From the IMG/VR virus record IMGVR_UViG_3300025924_000017, positions 64,001-128,000 of that record: 64,000 bases of DNA, one strand, 5' to 3'. The translations under genes were made by a program, and so were the position numbers. The notes under the pieces were generated by a model that was given only the letters and a program-made list of their open reading frames with translations, was not told the DNA's origin and ran no database searches. Source of the stretch: a virus. Taxonomy: Duplodnaviria > Caudoviricetes. Positions within the stretch are counted from its first letter, which is position 1. The number at the start of each line of letters is the position of its first letter. Of the stretch, positions 4,970 through 53,858 are shown piece after piece.

Positions 4970-5359
4970 ATGACTTGGAATACCAACACCGCCATCGGAA
5001 TCGCCGGTGTCGTGGCCGCCGCCATTCTGGCGGTTTGGCTCGGCGTCTCGATCCTTACCACCCTCATCGTACTGCTCGTCGTTCTCGCCGTCATCTACTT
5101 CGTCACGCCGGTTCGCACCGTCGTCTTCGGCTGGCTCGGCTGGACCGAGCCTTCTCCGTCCGAACTCTTCGCCACGGCCGTCGCCGACGTCGAAGCCATC
5201 GCGACGAAGTTCGAGAACGCCGCCAAGGGTCTCTACGATGAAGTCACCGGCCATCAGGCCGATGCCGCCGAGGCGACGAAGCTCGCCGACGACAAGCAGA
5301 AGCTTGCCGACCGTGCGACGGCCGCTGCGGCAAATCACAAGGCGCTGATCGGCGCATAA
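4970..5359 (+). CDS. Membrane-anchored coiled-coil protein
   Basis: AAGGA RBS; two TM segments then Ala/Lys-rich helix. Confidence 0.75.
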   Translation: MTWNTNTAIGIAGVVAAAILAVWLGVSILTTLIVLLVVLAVIYFVTPVRTVVFGWLGWTEPSPSELFATAVADVEAIATKFENAAKGLYDEVTGHQADAAEATKLADDKQKLADRATAAAANHKALIGA

Positions 5360-11143: not shown

Positions 11144-11400
11144 AGTCCTTCTTCTGCCAATGCGTCGGCATCGACTCCGCCGACTACTGGACACCAATCG
11201 AAGCGCGTCATCCCGATGATGCCGCCGAAGAATACATCAAGCGCTGCGAGGAAGGCTCCGGCGGCGAGATGCTCAACGATCCCTTCAAGGATCGCGAGAC
11301 AGTGCGGGTGAAGAACGCGGACGGCCAAGTCGTCAGCTTCGAGATCACGATGGACTGGTCGAAGGACTACTACGTTCATGAAGTGGGAGCAATGAATTGA
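11140..11400 (+). CDS. Hypothetical protein
   Basis: GTGA coupling. Confidence 0.6.
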   Translation: MKSFFCQCVGIDSADYWTPIEARHPDDAAEEYIKRCEEGSGGEMLNDPFKDRETVRVKNADGQVVSFEITMDWSKDYYVHEVGAMN

Positions 11401-11564: not shown

Positions 11565-11806
11565 TGAAACAGCCCGCGAGTTACCGCGTCATCAAATACT
11601 GGAAGAAGGTCGAACTCGCAGGCCTTCCATTCCACACGGTCTACACACTCATCCCCGAGACCAAGGTCCGGTCGGATGAAATGTCCGACCCGCAATTCGA
11701 CGCCATCGTCGTGGCCGTGAAGGAGGCCAAGCTCTCCTACCAACTCTACACCGTTGCGAAGGAGATGGCGGAGACCAGCGACGATCTGAAGGAGAAAGCA
11801 GCGTGA
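11564..11806 (+). CDS. Hypothetical protein
   Basis: TAATG coupling. Confidence 0.6.
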   Translation: MKQPASYRVIKYWKKVELAGLPFHTVYTLIPETKVRSDEMSDPQFDAIVVAVKEAKLSYQLYTVAKEMAETSDDLKEKAA

Positions 11807-11907
11807 GCTATTACTGGCATTGGGGCGAATGGGGCTTGGGGAAATACAAGGGCCTCAAGAGCACGTTCCTTTTCCTCGGCCCACTCACAATTGCGTGGTT
11901 GCACTGA
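11803..11907 (+). CDS. Very small hydrophobic ORF
   Basis: Coupled at both ends (GTGA, TGATG). Confidence 0.35.
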   Translation: MSYYWHWGEWGLGKYKGLKSTFLFLGPLTIAWLH

Positions 11908-22185: not shown

Positions 22186-22599
22186 ATGACCGTCCAAGTC
22201 GCGTTTGCTGGGGCAGTCCAGATCGACGTCCTCGGCTGGATCGCGGGCACGGACATGCCCGCCGCCCCGTCTTCGGTCAAGTTCGGATTGCTCACAGCGA
22301 TCCCGACGCACGACGGCGTCACGCTGCATGAGTTGAGCGGCAACGGCTATGCGCGACAGACTGTGACGTTCGGATCGGTGTCAACCGATAATACGAACCG
22401 CATCTCATCCATGTCCAACACGAACGCCATCATCTTCGGCCCGTCCACGGCCGACTGGGCGGCCGTCACGTATGGCGCATACTTCGACGGCACGACCGGC
22501 GACATGCTCGCCTACGGCGCGCTCGCCACGCCGCGCACCGCGCCAAACGGCGACACGATTTCTTTCGGCGCAGGCGCTCTGCAACTCCGCCTCCAATAA
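22186..22599 (+). CDS. Tail fibre-associated protein
   Basis: ELSGNGYARQTVTF...NTNAIIFGP.TADW..VTYGAYFD pattern common to phage tail-fibre proteins. Confidence 0.75.
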   Translation: MTVQVAFAGAVQIDVLGWIAGTDMPAAPSSVKFGLLTAIPTHDGVTLHELSGNGYARQTVTFGSVSTDNTNRISSMSNTNAIIFGPSTADWAAVTYGAYFDGTTGDMLAYGALATPRTAPNGDTISFGAGALQLRLQ

Positions 22600-30495: not shown

Positions 30496-30505
30496 CACAT
30501 AATCG

Positions 30506-30532
30506 TTGACAATACCGCCGCGATGTGCGACA
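30506..30532 (+). promoter_or_regulatory. Promoter-like motif before leader 1
   Basis: TTGACAATACCGCCGCGATGTGCGACA. Confidence 0.6.
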
Positions 30533-30540
30533 ACCCCAAT

Positions 30541-30627
30541 ATGACGACTGTTCTTACCACGTCTGTCCTTCTTTCTCCCCGTGAGCTTGAACGCTCGACG
30601 GGTCGAGATATGCACGTCGTCGCCTAA
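30541..30627 (+). CDS. Putative leader peptide 1 (MTTVLTTSVLLSPRELERSTGRDMHVVA)
   Basis: 28-aa ORF between promoter motif and Glu/Asp tRNAs; stop lies in loop of a long hairpin. Confidence 0.55.
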   Translation: MTTVLTTSVLLSPRELERSTGRDMHVVA

Positions 30628-30669
30628 ACGGCACGACGTAAACTCCGCCCGTCCGAACTCAGCTTCTAT

Positions 30670-30745
30670 CCGGGCATCTTACTATCAGCGAAGTGGACGG
30701 GCTTTCAACCCGTAGAGCCGGGGGCAGCACCCGGTGTCCGGACCA
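30670..30745 (+). tRNA. tRNA-Glu(TTC)
   Basis: Loop CTTTCAA; T loop GGCAGCA; CCA. Confidence 0.8.
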
Positions 30746-30941: not shown

Positions 30942-31016
30942 GGTCTGTTCGTCTACCAGCTAGGATACTCGCCTGTCACGCGGGAGGAACGGGGGCAGCA
31001 CCCGTACAGATCGCCA
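30942..31016 (+). tRNA. tRNA-Asp(GTC)
   Basis: Loop CTGTCAC; T loop GGCAGCA; CCA. Confidence 0.85.
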
Positions 31017-31018
31017 CC

Positions 31019-31597: not shown

Positions 31598-31624
31598 TTG
31601 ACTCGTTGTTCGTAATATGAGACA
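31598..31624 (+). promoter_or_regulatory. Promoter-like motif before leader 2
   Basis: TTGACTCGTTGTTCGTAATATGAGACA. Confidence 0.6.
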
Positions 31625-31669
31625 TACATCCCACACGGTGCTCATTCCGAGCGCCACGAAGGTTTGAAA

Positions 31670-31765
31670 ATGTTCGCAGTGCTTAAATCCAAGCCGAGTA
31701 CACATCTGGCATCCGCCAGCGTGCTGTCGCTCGCCTTGTCGCCTGCGACCACGCCAGCTATCTAA
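31670..31765 (+). CDS. Putative leader peptide 2 (MFAVLKSKPSTHLASASVLSLALSPATTPAI)
   Basis: 31-aa ORF; 26 of 30 post-Met codons are Pro/Thr/Lys/Leu/His/Ala/Ser, the amino acids of the downstream tRNAs. Confidence 0.75.
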   Translation: MFAVLKSKPSTHLASASVLSLALSPATTPAI

Positions 31766-31866
31766 AGCCGCGTCCGCGCGGCTCACGAGCCGCGCTCCAC
31801 CTTCTGAACTCCCCACACCCAGATCAGATCGCAGAGTTCGGCTCCTAAACAGGAGAACGAATACGT

Positions 31867-32034: not shown

Positions 32035-32123
32035 CAGAGTGTCGGGTAGCTTGGCTGATCTCGCCCGGTTTGGGGCCGGGAGTCGAAAGACACACGTTGG
32101 TTCGAATCCAACCACTCTGACCA
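32035..32123 (+). tRNA. tRNA-Pro(TGG), long variable arm
   Basis: Loop TTTGGGG; variable arm with GTC-GAAA-GAC; CCA. Confidence 0.85.
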
Positions 32124-32542: not shown

Positions 32543-32632
32543 GCGCTGGTGACCCGAGTAGCGAAGGGCTGAGACTCTTAATCTCATGATCTAAAAAATC
32601 CATCGCGGGTGCGAGTCCCGCCCAGCACACCA
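32543..32632 (+). tRNA. tRNA-Lys(CTT), long variable region
   Basis: Loop CTCTTAA; CCA. Confidence 0.8.
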
Positions 32633-32637
32633 ATTGA

Positions 32638-32731
32638 GCGCCGGTGACCCGAGAAGCGAAGGGCCGGGACTTTTAATCCTGTTTGGTGTTCAACACCATC
32701 GTCGTGGGTGCGAGTCCCACTCGGCACACCA
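32638..32731 (+). tRNA. tRNA-Lys(TTT), long variable arm
   Basis: Loop CTTTTAA; TGGTG-TTCAA-CACCA arm; CCA. Confidence 0.8.
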
Positions 32732-35062: not shown

Positions 35063-36904
35063 ATGCTTGACGCCCAGACCCTCGACCTCTTCAAGGTCAT
35101 TGTTCTCGACGAGTTTGCTGTGCCGCCGGAAGGGCTGAGCGCAAAGCCGTATCTGGAAGACCTCCAGCAGGGCTTCGTCACCAATTTCATCCCGACGCCC
35201 CTTCAGAGGGCCGCACTCTGCAAGGCGTTCAAGCCGCTTCCGCTGGTGACGCTGTTTTCGGTCGCCGAGCGCCGGGCGCCCGACATCACTCCGATGTCGC
35301 TGATCATGACGCAGCTTCTCCACTACATCGAGGTCTACGGCCTCGACCAGCCGGGCTTGTTCAATCTCGAAGTCAAGCAGGGTAGCGTCGTGGTTGTCGC
35401 CAACGTTCGCGGCGTGACGGTCGAGGAACTTGGCGACATGGTCCGCGCCCTGATCTACGCGAACGCGCCGGTCCGCAAGATCGAGGACGTGATCGAACTG
35501 ATCAAGTTCCACAACATTCCTTATGACCTCGCACTCGTGAAGAACAACGAAGCGCGCATCCGCTTGTACCGGGACGGCGATCAGTTTGCGTCCGGAGACG
35601 ACGCTGTCCGCTACATCGTCTTCAAGACGACCGGCGACTCGCTCCTGATCAAGTCCCCGGAAGTCGTCGCAGCCGTGAAGTCCGGCGAGCGACAGGTTTC
35701 GTTGCACTTCCTGATGGCGCACGAGACGGTCTTGGCGCAGGTGTTCAATCGCCACAAGCGCATCATCATGGCGTTGAAGAACCGGCGCACGGCACAGGCG
35801 ATCAACCGCATTTCGCGCTTCTCGAAGACGAAGCACGTCCCGCTCCGTCCGGCGCTCAACAAGACTTTCATCGCCCGCGCGCTCGGCGATCTGCCGTTCG
35901 ACTACGAGGACGCGCTGGAGGTCATCTCCCTGCGCGACAAGTTCAAGTACCTGAACCTGCTCGAATGGCGCCGCTTGCAGAATACCGATGACGTGTTCAT
36001 CATCCGCAACGGCCGCGCGCATTTGGAGCCGGATCGTAAGGTCTACCCCACCAAAGACATCACGGCGCTCATTATGAGTGTTGCGGACTCGATTGAGGCT
36101 GATCTGCGACATCTGCAAGGCAAGTCGATCCTGCTCGATCCCAATGTCGATTATGGTCTGCCGACCTCCCAGAAGCAGATGCTCGGCAGCCTGCCGTTCG
36201 GCACCACGATCTCGGTCGGTAACGGGAACATCTCGTCCGGCATCTATTGGGAGAACCGTTGGGGCGCGACCGATCTCGATCTGGCAGCCATCGACGAGTG
36301 GGGCGAACGCACCGGCTGGGGCGAGTTGTCCGGATTCGACAATAACAATCCGATCCTCTTCTCCGGCGACATCACGTCGGCACCTGAAGGCGCCATGGAG
36401 TTCATGACCTCGGCGACGACGGATTGTGAGCGCGTCTACGGACTGCTGGTGAACATCTTCAACGGGGGTAACGAGGCCGAATGCGAACTGCTCGTCGGCT
36501 CCCAGTTCGAAGGCAAGAACGGTCAGACGCGTTCCGGGCGATCCGCGAAGTGGATCAAGTCGCCGGTGATCCGGGAGAAGGTGAAGCTCACCTCTCGCGA
36601 GACGATCCTCGGCTTCGTACGGAACGGGAAGTTCGTCGTGTTCGCCCCGCGCCTGTCGAACCGCCGTGTGTCCGGCGGCGAGATCACGCGCCGTTTGATC
36701 GCGAAGGGCATGGCGCCGGTCTGGACGATCAGCAAGCTGCTCGCCGTTGCGGGAATCAAGTACGACACGACACCCGTTGACGGTGTTGTCTACGATTACG
36801 ATCTCTCGTACGCGTCGTTTTGTGTTGACAAAATGGAGCGCATGTTGTTCAATCCTCAGCAGGTTACGCCGCAAAAGACGTTCCTTACAGAAACAGCGGC
36901 CTAA
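35063..36904 (+). CDS. TerD-domain-containing stress/RNA-associated protein (putative)
   Basis: QLLHYIEVYG N-terminal motif; GIYWEN...DLDLAA...W...ILFSGDITSAPEGAMEF resembles TerD fold; AAGGA RBS. Confidence 0.6.
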   Translation: MLDAQTLDLFKVIVLDEFAVPPEGLSAKPYLEDLQQGFVTNFIPTPLQRAALCKAFKPLPLVTLFSVAERRAPDITPMSLIMTQLLHYIEVYGLDQPGLFNLEVKQGSVVVVANVRGVTVEELGDMVRALIYANAPVRKIEDVIELIKFHNIPYDLALVKNNEARIRLYRDGDQFASGDDAVRYIVFKTTGDSLLIKSPEVVAAVKSGERQVSLHFLMAHETVLAQVFNRHKRIIMALKNRRTAQAINRISRFSKTKHVPLRPALNKTFIARALGDLPFDYEDALEVISLRDKFKYLNLLEWRRLQNTDDVFIIRNGRAHLEPDRKVYPTKDITALIMSVADSIEADLRHLQGKSILLDPNVDYGLPTSQKQMLGSLPFGTTISVGNGNISSGIYWENRWGATDLDLAAIDEWGERTGWGELSGFDNNNPILFSGDITSAPEGAMEFMTSATTDCERVYGLLVNIFNGGNEAECELLVGSQFEGKNGQTRSGRSAKWIKSPVIREKVKLTSRETILGFVRNGKFVVFAPRLSNRRVSGGEITRRLIAKGMAPVWTISKLLAVAGIKYDTTPVDGVVYDYDLSYASFCVDKMERMLFNPQQVTPQKTFLTETAA

Positions 36905-36995
36905 AAAGCCGCTCCTAAAATACGTCTCGCGGTTTTCGATTTTGTTGCAAAGGGTGTTCCTTAAAAACCCTTCTATGGCAAACACACCCCGCAAC
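36869..36995 (+). ncRNA. Tandem pair of similar multi-branch RNA structures
   Basis: AGACGT/ACGTCT and GGGTGT/ACACCC stems each enclosing a TCCTTA..AAAC loop plus hairpin. Confidence 0.45.
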
Positions 36996-37007
36996 GCTCT
37001 CTGCGAG

Positions 37008-37040
37008 AGGCCATCCGAAAGGATGGCCTTTTGCATTTTG
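37008..37040 (+). terminator. Intrinsic terminator
   Basis: AGGCCATCC-GAAA-GGATGGCCT then T-rich run. Confidence 0.85.
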
Positions 37041-37044
37041 TTTC

Positions 37045-37071
37045 TTGACACGACTGCCGTGATATGAGACA
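37045..37071 (+). promoter_or_regulatory. Promoter-like motif before leader 3
   Basis: TTGACACGACTGCCGTGATATGAGACA. Confidence 0.6.
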
Positions 37072-37080
37072 ACCTTCTCC

Positions 37081-37179
37081 ATGAGCAAGACCTTTACCAA
37101 CGTGCAGCAAGTCGTCCGCCGGAATCGCTATATTCCGGGCGGGGCTTTCGCGCGTGTGGAGAAGGATCACGGGTTCTAA
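37081..37179 (+). CDS. Putative leader peptide 3 (MSKTFTNVQQVVRRNRYIPGGAFARVEKDHGF)
   Basis: 32-aa ORF; codons 7-18 all match downstream tRNAs; overlaps antiterminator strand. Confidence 0.8.
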   Translation: MSKTFTNVQQVVRRNRYIPGGAFARVEKDHGF

Positions 37180-37247
37180 ACCCAAAAGCTCTCCAAAGTT
37201 CTGCGAAAGGCCCGCCCGGTAAGCTCCGAGCGGGCCTTTTGCTTTTT
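37137..37247 (+). promoter_or_regulatory. Transcription attenuator (antiterminator/terminator)
   Basis: 37137-37151 GGGCGGGGCTTTCGC pairs (14/15) with 37203-37217, overlapping terminator AAAGGCCCGC/GCGGGCCTTT + T run. Confidence 0.8.
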
Positions 37248-37256
37248 GCCTTTCAC

Positions 37257-37342
37257 GCGGATGCGAACGAGAGGCGAGCGATTGACGGTCTGTAAAACCG
37301 TTGCCTATGGCTGAATGGGTTCAATTCCCATCATCCGCACCA
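37257..37342 (+). tRNA. tRNA-Tyr(GTA)
   Basis: Loop CTGTAAA; long variable arm. Confidence 0.9.
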
Positions 37343-37378
37343 AGGCAAAAACGAGAAGGTACGCAAGGAGAAGAATTT

Positions 37379-37455
37379 GCTTCGGTAGCTCAGTTGGTAA
37401 GAGCGCTGGCTTGAAATCCCAGAGGTCGATGCGTCGAGTGCATCCCGGAGCACCA
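37379..37455 (+). tRNA. tRNA-Phe(GAA)
   Basis: Loop TTGAAAT; T loop GTCGAGT. Confidence 0.85.
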
Positions 37456-37460
37456 TACAC

Positions 37461-37536
37461 AGTCCGTTAGCTCATTCAGGAGAGCGCTGGTGTCACATAC
37501 CAGAGGCGCACGGGGCAGAGCCGTGACGGACTACCA
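37461..37536 (+). tRNA. tRNA-Val(CAC)
   Basis: Loop GTCACAT; T loop GGCAGAG. Confidence 0.85.
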
Positions 37537-37540
37537 GCTT

Positions 37541-37616
37541 CCACCCGAGGCTGACTAGTGAGGCGGGCACCTGATTAGTGCCGTCAAGGTGAGTGCGATC
37601 CTCACCGGGTGGTCCA
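37541..37616 (+). tRNA. tRNA-Ile(GAT)
   Basis: Loop CTGATTA; T loop TGCGATC; atypical T37 and T73. Confidence 0.7.
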
Positions 37617-37654
37617 GTTTTCAGATCAGCGATGGAGATTCGTCGCTGGTTTTT

Positions 37655-37730
37655 AGTCCGATAGCTCATTCAGGAGAGCGCCGCTGTGACATGGCGGAGG
37701 TGCGCGGGGCAGAACCGCGTCGGACTACCA
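37655..37730 (+). tRNA. tRNA-Val(GAC)
   Basis: Loop GTGACAT; T loop GGCAGAA. Confidence 0.85.
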
Positions 37731-37736
37731 AATCAT

Positions 37737-37813
37737 TCTCCGTTAGCTGGTCGGTCTGGCCGCTGGGCTCTGAACCCGGAAAGAAGAACGTTCGAATCGT
37801 TCGCGGAGAGCCA
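37737..37813 (+). tRNA. tRNA-Gln(CTG)
   Basis: Loop CTCTGAA; U1:A72, G73. Confidence 0.85.
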
Positions 37814-37818
37814 AACAT

Positions 37819-37894
37819 TGCCCGTTAATTGCTAGGTGCGGTCGCCGGGTTTTGACCCCGGTAGGAAAAGGTTCGAATCCTTTGCGGGCATCCA
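37819..37894 (+). tRNA. tRNA-Gln(TTG)
   Basis: Loop TTTTGAC. Confidence 0.85.
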
Positions 37895-37900
37895 GAACAT

Positions 37901-37985
37901 TCCCTTCTGGCGGAACGAGTAGACGCGCTGCACTGTTAATGCAGTATCGAAAGATGTGCAGGGGCGGAGCCTGCGGAGGGAGCCA
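37901..37985 (+). tRNA. tRNA-Asn(GTT), type II-like body
   Basis: Loop CTGTTAA; Leu-like D arm GGCGGAACGAGTAGACGC; long variable arm; T loop GGCGGAG. Confidence 0.8.
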
Positions 37986-37994
37986 ATCAAATTT

Positions 37995-38070
37995 TGGTGT
38001 GTAGCTCAGTCGGCAGAGCGGCGGATTGTTAATCCGAAGGTCGCAGGATCGTACCCTGCCACGCCAGCCA
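37995..38070 (+). tRNA. tRNA-Asn(GTT)
   Basis: Loop TTGTTAA; G73. Confidence 0.85.
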
Positions 38071-38076
38071 AATTAT

Positions 38077-38158
38077 AGTCGCGAAGTGCTGAATGGAACG
38101 GAGGCAACGCACTACGAATGCGTAAACCCTGTGGGTTCGAGTCCCACCGCGACTACCA
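38077..38158 (+). tRNA. tRNA-Arg(ACG)
   Basis: Loop CTACGAA. Confidence 0.8.
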
Positions 38159-38165
38159 GTTTTGA

Positions 38166-38241
38166 CGTGCCGTCGCCTAAAGGTAAGGCCCTTCGCTCAT
38201 AACGACAGTGTATGTGAGTTCGATTCTCACCGGCACCACCA
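38166..38241 (+). tRNA. tRNA-Met(CAT)
   Basis: Loop CTCATAA; C1:C72 mismatch; weak anticodon stem. Confidence 0.7.
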
Positions 38242-38244
38242 AAT

Positions 38245-38327
38245 GGCCCCGTAGCTCAGCGGACAGAGCGCCGGTCTTCTAAGCCGGGAAATCAACGTCG
38301 GGGGTTCGACTCCCTCCGGGGCTTCCA
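38245..38327 (+). tRNA. tRNA-Arg(TCT)
   Basis: Loop CTTCTAA. Confidence 0.9.
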
Positions 38328-38333
38328 GATCAC

Positions 38334-38408
38334 AGCCGCGTAGCTCAACGGAAAGAGCGCCAGTTTCCGAAACTGAGGATCGGTGTTCGATTCACCGCGC
38401 GGCTACCA
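38334..38408 (+). tRNA. tRNA-Arg(CCG)
   Basis: Loop TTCCGAA. Confidence 0.9.
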
Positions 38409-51463: not shown

Positions 51464-51587
51464 GATCTCGGGAATTCGTGAGATCACGGCTGCACCTCGG
51501 CTTCCGTGCGGTTCTGGCGCGCTGAAATCCCCTCATTTCCGACCTCATCCGTGAAAACCGCTAACCCGGGCTGAAAAACGATTCCCT

Positions 51588-52238
51588 ATGGCTGCCTTCC
51601 ACGAAATCTTGTTCCCGGTGGACATCTCGTACAATTCGAGTGGTGGTCCCCGCTTCAAGACCACAATCTTCACCGCTGACTCCGGCTACGAACAGCGCAA
51701 TATCGACTGGGCCAACCAGAAGGCCGAGTACGACGTTAGCCACGGCATCAAGAATCAGGAGCAGATGGATGCGCTGACGGCGTTCTTCTACGCCCGGCGA
51801 GCGCGCGCGTACGGTTTTCGCTATCTGGACTACAACGATTTCAACATCACAAGCCAGCAGATTGCGGTCGGTGACGGCGCGACCCTGTCCTTCCAGATCA
51901 TCAAAACTTACGTCTCGACGCAGGCGGAGTCAGGGGAGACCTACACCTACGGCCGCAAGCTGACGAAGATCGCGTGGAACACCATCGCGGGAGTCACGGT
52001 CAACGGCGTCGTGAAGACGTCGCCTACGGATTACACCGTCAACTACAATACCGGAGTCATCACGTTCGTTGTGGCACCGCCCACCGGTCAGTCCATCGTG
52101 ATCGGCGCCGGTCAGTTTCACGTTCCGGTCCGCTTCGACACCGATCATCTCGACGTCGTTCAGGAGTTCTGGAACACGTCGTCGTGGAACAGCATTCCGC
52201 TTGTTGAGGTGCGCGACTGGGGTGAGGCGCTCACCTAA
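51588..52238 (+). CDS. Distal tail protein, GTA-like (DUF2460/TIGR02217)
   Basis: FHEILFP.DISY.SSGGP.F.T.I...SGYEQRN..W; F.VPVRFDTD.L. Confidence 0.9.
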   Translation: MAAFHEILFPVDISYNSSGGPRFKTTIFTADSGYEQRNIDWANQKAEYDVSHGIKNQEQMDALTAFFYARRARAYGFRYLDYNDFNITSQQIAVGDGATLSFQIIKTYVSTQAESGETYTYGRKLTKIAWNTIAGVTVNGVVKTSPTDYTVNYNTGVITFVVAPPTGQSIVIGAGQFHVPVRFDTDHLDVVQEFWNTSSWNSIPLVEVRDWGEALT

Positions 52239-53858
52239 ATGAAGTCCATCAGCGACACCTTCAAAACCCATATTCAGGGTGAAGTCACCACTGTCTGCAC
52301 GTGCGTCAATATCATCCGCAGGGATGGCGCATCGTTCGGTCTGACCGATCACGATGATGTCGTGACGGTGAACGGTGTCCGCTATCTACCGTTCAACTCG
52401 TATGCGCGGTCGTCCGTTCAGACCACTTCCACGATGGAAGTGGACTCGATGGAAATCAACGGCATTTTGAACTCCGACGCTTTTGCGCGCACCGACATCG
52501 GCGGCGGTCTGTTCGATTTCGCTGAAGTGCACGTCTTCATCGTCAATTACAATGACCCCGACTCCGGTCAGTTGAATCTTCGCACCGGCTGGATCGGCGA
52601 GATCGAGCAGAACGAGGACAACTCTTTTCACGCGGAAATTCGAGGCCTTTCTCAGGTCTTCTCTTATCGCCTCGGCGAGCCTTACGCCCCCGAGTGCGCG
52701 GCCGACCTCGGCGACAACCGCTGCAAGATCGCCCTCGACCCGCCGTGGTGGAAGGCGCTTTGCCCGTTTCGCGCCGGTGACGTGGTCATTGGTCACATCA
52801 CGTCGGCCACCGATTATGTGAACGCCGATTCCAGCAACAACGACTTCTCGTCTCAGAGCGATGGCACTTCCGCGCGTCTCCCCGACGACTGGGTCACCTA
52901 CGGAAGCCCGGACGGCCAGTGGTTCTTCTCGTCCAGCTTTCACGGCCTGACATCGCCGCCCGGCGGTTCGTTGTTTGCCGCGATCACCGATCAGTTCGGC
53001 ACGAACGACACCGAATACCTCGGCATGTATCAGGACGTCGATCTTGTGGCATCCGGTCTTGTCACGGCCGACATCGACACCGGACTTTGCCGCATCGTCT
53101 TCAAGGGCTGGGTGGGCCTGAACGACTCTCAGGGGTTGGCCCAACTACGCCTCTTTGCGGTCGATGCGGGCGGCGTCCTGACGAACGTCTGGGACACCGG
53201 CATCCACGCGTATGCGCAGGACCGCTGGATCACGCTTTCCACCGACTCGACTCTGATCCCAGCAGGGACTCGGAAAATCCGCGTCGATTTCATGGGGAAG
53301 AAGCACGACCATCTCGGATATGGCGCCGCGTTTGGCGGCTACCAGATGGCGTTCAACGATCCTGACGGGACGTTCAATTCCGACGATCAGGCATCGGGCG
53401 TGATGTTTCAGGCCCAGAACGGCGGCGTCACCGGAGGTACGGAGCCAGCATTCTCGGCACTCCTTGGGGCCACCTACACGGACGGCACGATCACGTGGAA
53501 GTGCATCAAGTCGTTCAAGGATGTGACCACAGTTACGTCCCCGACATCCGGTCAGGCCTTCACAGCCACGCTCCCGCATCCCGATGGCTACTACGACGGC
53601 GGACTGCTGATCTGGGAAACGGGTTTGAACACCGGCCGCAACATGCAAGTGCGGACGTGGCTCTCGGGAACCGTCACGCTATTTGAGCGGACGTTCTTCG
53701 AGATCACCGCAGGTGACCGGTTCGTGATCCATCCGGGCTGCGACAAACGCCGCGAAACGTGCATCGGCACGTTCAACAATCTTCTCAACATTCGTGCCTT
53801 CCCCGATGTGCCGGGTCAGGACGCGTACATGCAAACACCGAACGCACCATCCAACTAA
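52239..53858 (+). CDS. Baseplate hub, GTA-like (DUF2163/BR0599) with large insertion
   Basis: GLTDHD, C.ADLGDNRC, GCDKRRETC...FNN..N.RAFPDVPG. Confidence 0.9.
   Translation: MKSISDTFKTHIQGEVTTVCTCVNIIRRDGASFGLTDHDDVVTVNGVRYLPFNSYARSSVQTTSTMEVDSMEINGILNSDAFARTDIGGGLFDFAEVHVFIVNYNDPDSGQLNLRTGWIGEIEQNEDNSFHAEIRGLSQVFSYRLGEPYAPECAADLGDNRCKIALDPPWWKALCPFRAGDVVIGHITSATDYVNADSSNNDFSSQSDGTSARLPDDWVTYGSPDGQWFFSSSFHGLTSPPGGSLFAAITDQFGTNDTEYLGMYQDVDLVASGLVTADIDTGLCRIVFKGWVGLNDSQGLAQLRLFAVDAGGVLTNVWDTGIHAYAQDRWITLSTDSTLIPAGTRKIRVDFMGKKHDHLGYGAAFGGYQMAFNDPDGTFNSDDQASGVMFQAQNGGVTGGTEPAFSALLGATYTDGTITWKCIKSFKDVTTVTSPTSGQAFTATLPHPDGYYDGGLLIWETGLNTGRNMQVRTWLSGTVTLFERTFFEITAGDRFVIHPGCDKRRETCIGTFNNLLNIRAFPDVPGQDAYMQTPNAPSN

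Follow-up and report, generated by a model that had tools for sequence, protein, structure and literature searches.

The DNA analysed here, referred to as the window, is a stretch of 64,000 nucleotides (nt) representing bases 64001-128000 of IMGVR_UViG_3300025924_000017, a complete virus record of 225,611 bp in IMG/VR with a G+C content of ~60%. The window encodes a tape-measure protein of 1858 amino acids together with further long tail genes, and a tail protein of this phage is ~40% identical to those of phiCbK and its relatives (Dolichocephalovirinae); the source is a phiCbK-like phage. The majority of the transfer RNA (tRNA) genes of the genome are found on the plus strand between 29149 and 38408, where they form four groups. 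The subject of this report is a short leader with the layout of a transcription attenuator, located on the plus strand immediately ahead of a block of 13 of these genes (37257..38408, plus strand) and preceded by a gene for a 624-amino-acid protein.

The block, from Tyr to Arg, contains the genes for Tyr GTA, Phe GAA, Val CAC, Ile GAT, Val GAC, Gln CTG, Gln TTG, two Asn GTT, Arg ACG, Met CAT, Arg TCT and Arg CCG, and starts with tRNA-Tyr (37257-37339, plus strand). Ten of the genes, that for Tyr included, were identified by ARAGORN and Rfam. The remaining three, also on the plus strand, were recovered by other means: Val CAC (37461-37534) and Val GAC (37655-37729), both missed by ARAGORN and Rfam, by reading of the sequence and a custom cloverleaf scan, and Ile GAT (37541-37616), missed by the same programs at their default settings, by reading of the sequence and a relaxed ARAGORN run. 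No promoter-like site was found between the leader terminator and tRNA-Tyr, either by a consensus scan or by reading of the sequence.

All of the following elements of the leader unit are on the plus strand. An intrinsic terminator detected by consensus scan (37002..37035, a 15-bp stem with 8 GC pairs and a T run) appears to insulate the unit from the preceding 624-amino-acid gene. It is followed by a promoter-like motif, TTGACA-N17-GACAAC (37045..37073, with TTGACA at 37045-37050 and GACAAC at 37068-37073), which we take to agree with the alphaproteobacterial sigma-70 consensus. Translation of the sequence downstream revealed an open reading frame (ORF) of 32 codons with a TAA stop at 37177-37179 (37081..37179), the ATG of which is 7 nt past the second hexamer and has no Shine-Dalgarno sequence; this proximity had been remarked upon in an earlier note made from the sequence alone, and the mRNA is probably leaderless. 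Codons 7-18 (N V Q Q V V R R N R Y I; 37099..37134) are referred to here as the sensing run. A table of codons and anticodons bore out what the earlier note had claimed for them, as all 12 consecutive codons are readable by tRNAs of the block under standard wobble, and the same is true of nearly all of codons 4-18. The leader additionally contains TTT/TTC and ATG, and among the 12 distinct anticodons of the block TCT (AGA/AGG) alone has no codon in the leader, also as described before.

The occurrence of such runs was assessed in 2196 ORFs of 20-60 amino acids from all six frames of the whole 225.6-kb genome. A run of 12 or more of the amino acids of the block (Y, F, V, I, Q, N, R, M) was present in one ORF, namely the leader, and a run of 10 in only two. 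The sensing run is not a chance feature.

Four regions can be distinguished in the leader RNA. Region 1, the sensing codons, provides the 5' arm of a hairpin (hairpin 1:2, 37089..37168) that is part of the minimum free energy (MFE) structure of the full leader and has an apex stem of 37116-37125 with 37132-37147; this third element, in which the sensing codons are paired with the 5' strand of the antiterminator, had been overlooked in the earlier note. Region 2 (37135..37151), the 5' strand of the antiterminator, is situated within codons 19-24 and was found by a repeat search to be 94% complementary to region 3 (37203..37219), with 16/17 nt paired. This pairing encompasses the 14/15 complementarity between 37137-37151 and 37203-37217 that had been pointed out previously, and region 3, recovered in both the repeat search and the folds, is common to antiterminator and terminator, which confirms the reported overlap with the 5' arm of a U-tailed terminator. 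Region 4 (37226..37249; repeat search and fold) comprises the 3' arm of the terminator and a T-rich tract. The terminator arms given by the repeat search, 37203-37219 and 37226-37242, are thus followed by the T-rich tract, 10 nt short of tRNA-Tyr. The terminator hairpin alone has a predicted energy of -31.9 kcal/mol (z = -5.2) and the 170-nt leader an MFE of -78.8 kcal/mol (z = -5.0), with none of 200 shuffles as good. The MFE structure of the full leader consists of hairpin 1:2 and the terminator; RNA truncated ahead of the 3' arm of the terminator pairs 37135-37151 with 37203-37219 instead. In these models the four regions and three overlapping helices, 1:2, 2:3 and 3:4, correspond to the classical layout of an attenuator.

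To compare the element between phages, 19 homologous leaders were collected, which included the leader of the window, seven from metagenomic or IMG/VR relatives, ten from known Dolichocephalovirinae, phiCbK among them, and a single second copy. Relatives were located via homologues of the upstream 624-amino-acid protein and of a downstream PhoH on their contigs, on which the gene order is shared, and one IMG/VR contig (L050) by a gapped scan for the region-2 motif. Homologous leaders before the Tyr-to-Arg block were found at L033:2875-2970, L045:7958-8062, L048:10576-10674, L050:3916-4082 (minus strand, a range spanning ATG through U tract) and L051:2199-2297, and in L054 and L056 with starts at 2310 and 4852 respectively. 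A DNA search with the phiCbK leader (NC_019405.1 51341-51502) matched 48 published phage records, and ten published records were examined (phiCbK, Rogue, BL57, CcrSC, CcrBL9, CcrPW, Colossus, Gurke, Kikimora and Bambus). These share with the window the class of sensing run, the position of the terminator and the tRNA block, and in their records the pieces of the leader carry no annotation beyond 'predicted rho-independent terminator' or 'hypothetical protein'. The sole annotation at the site in phiCbK is a 'predicted rho-independent terminator' (51465-51502). The frame itself is annotated as a 32-amino-acid gene in L048 and L051 and as a 'hypothetical protein' in S2L, RBC57 and Brevundimonas phages.

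All 19 leaders have an open frame of 31-34 codons with variable sequence, in which insertions and deletions are multiples of three, and a U-tailed GC hairpin in the same place (-21 to -33 kcal/mol), followed by the tRNA block. The arrangement TTGAC[A/T]-N17-hexamer, with the ATG 6-8 nt on, was present in 17 of the 17 leaders for which upstream sequence was read, a count that leaves out Bambus and BL57, which have a longer upstream ORF at this flank. A profile constructed from eight leaders matched each locus extending to the 5' end of the Tyr-to-Arg block, and matched once in the genome of the window. The same profile had no match in L029, L032, L043 and L044, which carry the 624-amino-acid gene without adjacent tRNA genes. 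Presence of the leader is linked to presence of the tRNAs.

Further searches were performed for more distant members. A profile search of 1.84 billion protein representatives yielded just two leader peptides and no wider family, which suggests that leader frames are seldom called by gene callers. The conserved region-2 motif, scanned as a DNA pattern in JGI metagenome contigs, gave nine matches, all of them chance matches in unrelated genes, and the exact motif had no match in IMG/VR. A tblastn search with the 32-amino-acid leader against 50,697 phage records produced no match, the query being too short, and an IMG/VR search anchored on the neighbouring 624-amino-acid protein and PhoH produced distant loci only, none with a tRNA block beside the match.

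The tRNA content of phiCbK was also considered. This phage appears to encode unannotated Tyr GTA, Asn GTT, Arg ACG and Arg CCG tRNAs (NC_019405.1 ~51543-51627, 52232-52306, 52333-52415 and 52423-52505; L058:21544-21628, 22233-22307, 22334-22416 and 22424-22506 respectively). In the phiCbK genome paper Tyr tRNAs are reported in none of these phages, Asn tRNA in Colossus only, and no Arg tRNA in phiCbK. Given the unannotated Asn and Arg tRNAs, the Asn and Arg codons of the phiCbK leader are matched too. A small hairpin with the stop TAA in its loop (37171..37183, plus strand) is present in both the full and the truncated folds of the leader in the window, and a similar stop-codon hairpin is visible by eye in L033, phiCbK and L050.

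The peptides encoded by the 19 leaders were aligned and their residues scored for membership in the amino-acid set of the block. At the sensing columns (5-21), 271/277 residues (97.8%) were in the set, with column states of 49 in and 6 out, compared with 70/254 residues (27.6%) and column states of 25 in and 50 out for the tail columns (22 to the end). Up to five different residues occur in a single sensing column, yet they stay within the set, and of the nonsynonymous codons one nucleotide away from the sensing codons only 25% are in-set. When one state per column was taken as ancestral, 32/38 derived states were in-set (binomial, 3e-14). These sequence data indicate that the sensing run is selected for membership in the amino-acid set of the block and not for residue identity. 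The swaps observed in the run (N/R, V/F/I/Q/R and T-to-R with AGA) are non-conservative for a protein and neutral for a sensor of a tRNA group.

At the level of codons, almost every sensing codon was readable by a tRNA of its own block in the eight loci for which the block was fully scanned. The codon ATA is confined to the leaders of L045 and L048, both of which carry Ile TAT, and GTA to the two leaders of L048, a locus with Val TAC; these matches are few in number and anecdotal. The second, diverged leader is located within the L048 block (11739-11893) and has its own TTGACA-N17-hexamer with an ATG 6 nt on. Its sensing run, 15 residues long, is confined to R, N, Q and V and precedes a single F. 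The tRNA genes downstream of it serve R, N, Q and V alone (Val, two Gln, two Asn and five Arg), and those for Tyr, Phe, Ile and Met lie ahead of it.

Conservation of the RNA switch was investigated with the same leaders. The 2:3 helix was recovered as the consensus structure by RNAalifold from a plain MAFFT alignment, and was paired in 83.3% of the cells of the 19-sequence alignment, compared with 31-58% when the partners were slid by 1-3 columns. Compensatory, two-sided changes were found at 8/17 pairs of this helix, and the observed covariation was reached by none of 500 shuffles. In eight homologues, cognate duplexes of regions 2 and 3 had a mean of -32.4 kcal/mol, against -27.3 kcal/mol for non-cognate duplexes (permutation p = 1.5e-4). 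In the 19 leaders the apex of hairpin 1:2 was 71% paired, four of its pairs showing compensatory changes, and by eye its stems interchange between CCGG/CCGG, CCAG/CUGG and CCGA/UCGG.

The effect of ribosome position was modelled by footprint folding, in which a 28-nt ribosome footprint was held unpaired at each codon in turn. The predicted probability of the terminator in the leader of the window was 0.89 with no ribosome, ~0 with the A site at codons 1-14, 0.05 at codon 15 and 0.96 at codons 16-28. At codons 29-32 the values were 0.81, 0.0, 0.73 and 0.82 respectively, and at the stop codon the probability dropped to 0.2, because region 2 is exposed behind the ribosome. Full-length equilibrium folding with footprints was rejected as a test for the homologues, as the terminator always wins in many of them, and truncated transcripts were used. 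In transcripts of ten homologues cut before region 4, region 3 was sequestered upstream unless the ribosome covered region 2.

Two further leaders are found in the window. Leader 2 (31598-31866, ORF 31670-31765) is located before the Pro/Thr/Lys/Leu/His/Ala/Ser block, and 26/30 of its residues are from its own set; it is one of only three among the 2196 small ORFs with at least 85% of residues from P, T, K, L, H, A and S. Downstream of its stop in the window are two hairpins that exclude one another and a C-rich tract, with no U-tailed hairpin. Counterparts are present at L048:1182-1298 (a run of 32) and in L056 near 212-325 (a run of 30), and the counterpart in phiCbK is annotated gp335, a hypothetical protein of 45 amino acids (NC_019405.1 49540-49677) that is followed by an annotated terminator. 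By their composition, the leaders of the Pro-to-Ala block appear to be an independent family that mirrors a different amino-acid set. Leader 1 (30496-30745, ORF 30541-30627) precedes the Glu/Asp tRNAs; its frame begins 6 nt past a TTGACA-N17-GACAAC motif and its matching codons are only two for Glu and one for Asp, near the end. A similar frame in phiCbK (L058:18083-18145) is followed by an annotated terminator. Besides the one at 51465-51502, phiCbK has two such terminators, at NC_019405.1 48120-48166 and 49745-49769. Directly after leader 1, at ~30661-30736, is an apparent tRNA-Glu(TTC) with an odd T loop, which was missed by ARAGORN and Rfam.

The sequence and the folding models suggest that the leader at 37081-37250 is likely to be a ribosome-mediated (leader-peptide) transcription attenuator that controls the phage tRNA operon as a feedback on tRNA supply. 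This is the reading proposed in the earlier note, and it is supported by the new data, as the structure it predicted was found and is conserved across the 19 homologous leaders. From the anatomy we infer where transcription starts, that the frame is translated, that the terminator is used and which way the response runs, as follows. Transcription would begin at or beside the A of the leader ATG, generating a leaderless mRNA, and a ribosome would trail the polymerase along the 32-codon frame. When cognate charged tRNAs are scarce the ribosome would linger on the sensing run (region 1), leaving region 2 free to pair with region 3; the terminator would not form and the 13 tRNA genes would be transcribed. 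With fast decoding the ribosome would cover region 2, or region 1 would re-pair with region 2 behind it, and with region 2 occupied, regions 3 and 4 would pair and transcription would halt 10 nt ahead of tRNA-Tyr. The predicted outcome is a negative feedback by which phage tRNA output is matched to decoding demand for seven or eight amino acids jointly. The long mixed run would pool the supply of these tRNA classes, and one theoretical treatment includes the result that attenuator sensitivity rises with the number of regulatory codons (PMC1183508).

Several observations weigh against an attenuator of this kind, or restrict the manner in which it could operate. In the footprint folds, a ribosome on the early codons kept the terminator from forming, as the earlier note had anticipated for the sensing run; stalls on the last three sensing codons (16-18) would favour termination over read-through. 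A ribosome at the stop codon re-exposes region 2, with the low terminator probability given above, and free RNA cut before region 4 favours 2:3 over 1:2. From the preference for 2:3 and the exposure at the stop codon it follows that the OFF state would rest on a ribosome covering region 2 during synthesis of regions 3 and 4, on quick local re-formation of the 1:2 apex or on steric hindrance to a helix that would have to close around a ribosome. The lower part of hairpin 1:2 is poorly conserved (36% paired). In addition, full-length equilibrium folds of phiCbK, Colossus, L050, L051 and L056 retain the terminator at every ribosome position, so that the switch would have to be kinetic, as in the trp leader. 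Most of the sensed tRNAs have just one to three codons in the run, and any single stall may be weak. Finally, the amino-acid set of the block is near-constant across the family, and the codon mirror could be partly or mostly inherited, not re-tuned; re-tuning is addressed, at the level of sequence, only by the second leader of L048 and the few GTA and ATA codons.

The geometry of the switch is by itself silent on which codons matter, and a translated frame could gate the terminator while sensing general translation capacity or the coupling of transcription to translation, not particular tRNAs. Leaderless initiation could then be the regulated step, and the three matching codons of leader 1 are in keeping with such a sensor. 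We consider it unlikely, as it leaves unexplained the 97.8% of in-set residues at varying sensing positions, the different set of the second leader family and the internal R/N/Q/V leader of L048. Alternatively, the terminator may be a fixed partial 'dimmer' or insulator, the response having the opposite sign or the element another purpose, with the frame kept, for example, for ribosomes that protect or process the leader RNA. The full-length equilibrium folds of many homologues, which keep the terminator regardless of ribosome position, would agree with this, as would the phiCbK annotators' record of 'rho-independent terminators' only; however, a fixed element has no role for the conserved, covarying 2:3 helix and does not account for the selection on codon class, and we regard it as somewhat less probable again.

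Two further readings both appear very improbable. The frame may encode a functional micro-protein of 32 amino acids, for instance a peptide that binds RNA or ribosomes and is rich in R, N, Q, V, F, Y and I, with its likeness to the tRNA block incidental. The peptide length is conserved and the frame is annotated as a gene in some records, but sensing positions swap chemically unlike residues (N/R, V/F/I/Q/R) that stay in-set, the tail is hardly conserved beyond the constraint of the RNA helix, and the search of 1.84 billion proteins found two such peptides with no wider family; a micro-protein also offers no reason for a terminator switch or for a second leader family of different composition. 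The leader may also be a purely RNA-level element, a non-coding structure that possibly binds tRNA or protein, the open frame having arisen by chance in GC-rich DNA. Strong structure (z = -5.0) and conserved helices are indeed possible without translation, yet the frame is open in 19/19 diverged leaders, indels come in threes, amino-acid class is selected and the distance from the -10 hexamer to the ATG is constant at 6-8 nt wherever upstream sequence was read. Moreover, no Rfam family passed the threshold for such an element, T-box included. In the Rfam search only tRNA models passed, and the best leader-type matches, to Thr_leader, scored 21.1 and 16.3 bits where 55 is required (E at least 0.49). 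A T-box or other known RNA family was ruled out in the absence of any Rfam match at threshold, and an origin of the leader from a degenerate tRNA was rejected as no tRNA model matched on 37081-37250. The leader was also not accepted as the shadow of long minus-strand ORFs, which are typical GC-rich artefacts opposite real genes.

The ilvGMEDA leader senses Leu, Val and Ile and the thr leader senses Thr and Ile, both being multivalent attenuators of enterobacteria. Judged from textbook knowledge, the phage leader resembles these in its frame of ~32 codons with regulatory codons for several amino acids, in its predicted helices 1:2, 2:3 and 3:4, in the GC hairpin and U tract before the genes and in the proposed selection of the helix by ribosome position. 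It is unlike them in that it would regulate tRNA genes, not biosynthetic enzymes, the sensed molecules being its own products, and in that seven or eight amino-acid classes would be sensed, not two or three; it also belongs to a phage and is apparently leaderless, and each of three tRNA sub-arrays has a version with a composition of its own. The comparison with trpL, hisL, leuL and pheL is similar, as a stall at regulatory codons would choose the antiterminator over the terminator and many of the codons are consecutive, as in hisL. Those leaders, however, use one codon type for the amino acid of one pathway, whereas the phage run is mixed and the likely variable is tRNA supply. The proposed element works like the classical trp/his/leu/thr/ilv/phe attenuators and is not a member of that group, as the downstream genes are 13 tRNAs. 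T-box riboswitches also tie read-through to the state of specific tRNAs via a choice between terminator and antiterminator; unlike the phage leader as proposed here, they directly bind uncharged tRNA by way of a specifier codon, contain no frame for ribosomes to translate and control synthetase and amino-acid genes. Among alphaproteobacteria, trpL of Sinorhizobium is one described attenuator for a single amino acid (PMC6614838). The text of the phiCbK genome paper contains neither 'attenuat' nor 'leader', and that of the phiCbK infection RNA sequencing paper contains none of 'attenuat', 'leader' or tRNA. No description of leader-peptide control of tRNA genes was found in the full-text literature, a search in which most subscription journals were outside coverage and in which absence is not proof. 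We know of no earlier case of leader-peptide attenuation controlling tRNA genes.

To determine if comparable frames are found elsewhere, 24 unrelated tRNA loci from IMG/VR were surveyed and 3821 small ORFs pooled. In L025 (minus strand, before the tRNA at 5202) an in-set run of 11 residues precedes tRNAs for N, M, V, I, K, R and R, in a frame of the leaderless type with its ATG 8 nt past a promoter-like motif and a strong U-tailed hairpin. A 12-residue run at L007:6574-6672, copied in L018 and L021, comes ahead of tRNAs for K, K, G, G, D, E, R, E, R, F and R, and L011 has one before 4873, ahead of S, Y, L, L, W, C, S, S and S. The frames of L025, L007, L011 and L004 were each the top or only one by run length among the 3821 ORFs, copies in their own sister loci aside; that of L009 ranked first only by in-set fraction, its run being equalled by nine ORFs. 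The IMG/VR phages with these mirror frames (L025, L007/L018/L021, L011, L009 and L004) have a G+C content of 0.50-0.56. Mirror frames of the L025/L007/L011 type may be analogous to the leader described here and look non-homologous. We would only tentatively propose that mirror leaders are a general, modular device of tRNA-rich phages, which would switch on a sub-array only when that class of tRNA is short.

Some additional features of the tRNA region were observed. Several tRNA-like genes of the window at 37461-37534, 37655-37729, 37901-37985, ~30661-30736 and ~30944-31018 have a non-canonical T loop (GGCAGAG, GGCAGAA, GGCAGCA or GGCGGAG, not TTCRANY); they retain acceptor stems, anticodon loops and an encoded CCA, and most escape standard tRNA finders. 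L048 likewise has such a gene, for Ile GAT at 11374. Other tRNAs are atypically long (window 32035-32123, 32543-32731 and others), with Pro of 89 nt, Lys of 90 and 94 nt, Asn of 85 nt and Arg of 82-83 nt, which suggests insertions or long variable regions; relatives and phiCbK share the long tRNAs, the Lys tRNAs of phiCbK being 88-91 nt. Within the block, between Ile GAT and Val GAC (37618-37654), a short hairpin is followed by GTTTTT, in the same position as the second complete leader of L048, and could represent a terminator inside the block, a site of processing or the remnant of a leader. Two conserved stem-loop units, each with the motif GTTCCTTA(A/C)A, are located at 36870-37000, 3' of the 624-amino-acid gene. 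Their counterparts are found at L029:10670-10830, L032:11800-11960, L043:3860-4000, L044:5970-6100, L033:2630-2760 and L002:7740-7920, and they persist even in relatives without tRNAs or a leader at the site. They may be a small RNA, a protein-binding site or an element of the 3' untranslated region.

To our knowledge, control of the expression of phage tRNA genes has so far received almost no attention. The purpose of the genes has been debated for fifty years, and the explanations that figure in published accounts include codon compensation and, lately, escape from tRNA-cleaving defences (PMC10264068, PMC11555353). If mirror leaders are a general device, they would constitute an inducible counter-defence besides a regulator of supply, for example under attack by host anticodon nucleases or other tRNA-targeting defences. 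Annotated terminators and small 'hypothetical proteins' beside published tRNA arrays merit re-reading, and genetics, ribosome profiling and RNA sequencing of infection (PMC10688885) exist for phiCbK and Caulobacter crescentus, making direct tests feasible. Should the attenuator reading be true, the leader would be the most multivalent attenuator known and a ready-made, compact sensor for the supply of specific tRNAs. A subfamily of large phages that includes phiCbK would then gauge the speed of decoding by codon class and feed this back on the transcription of the cognate tRNAs, with three separate sensors serving three tRNA sub-arrays.

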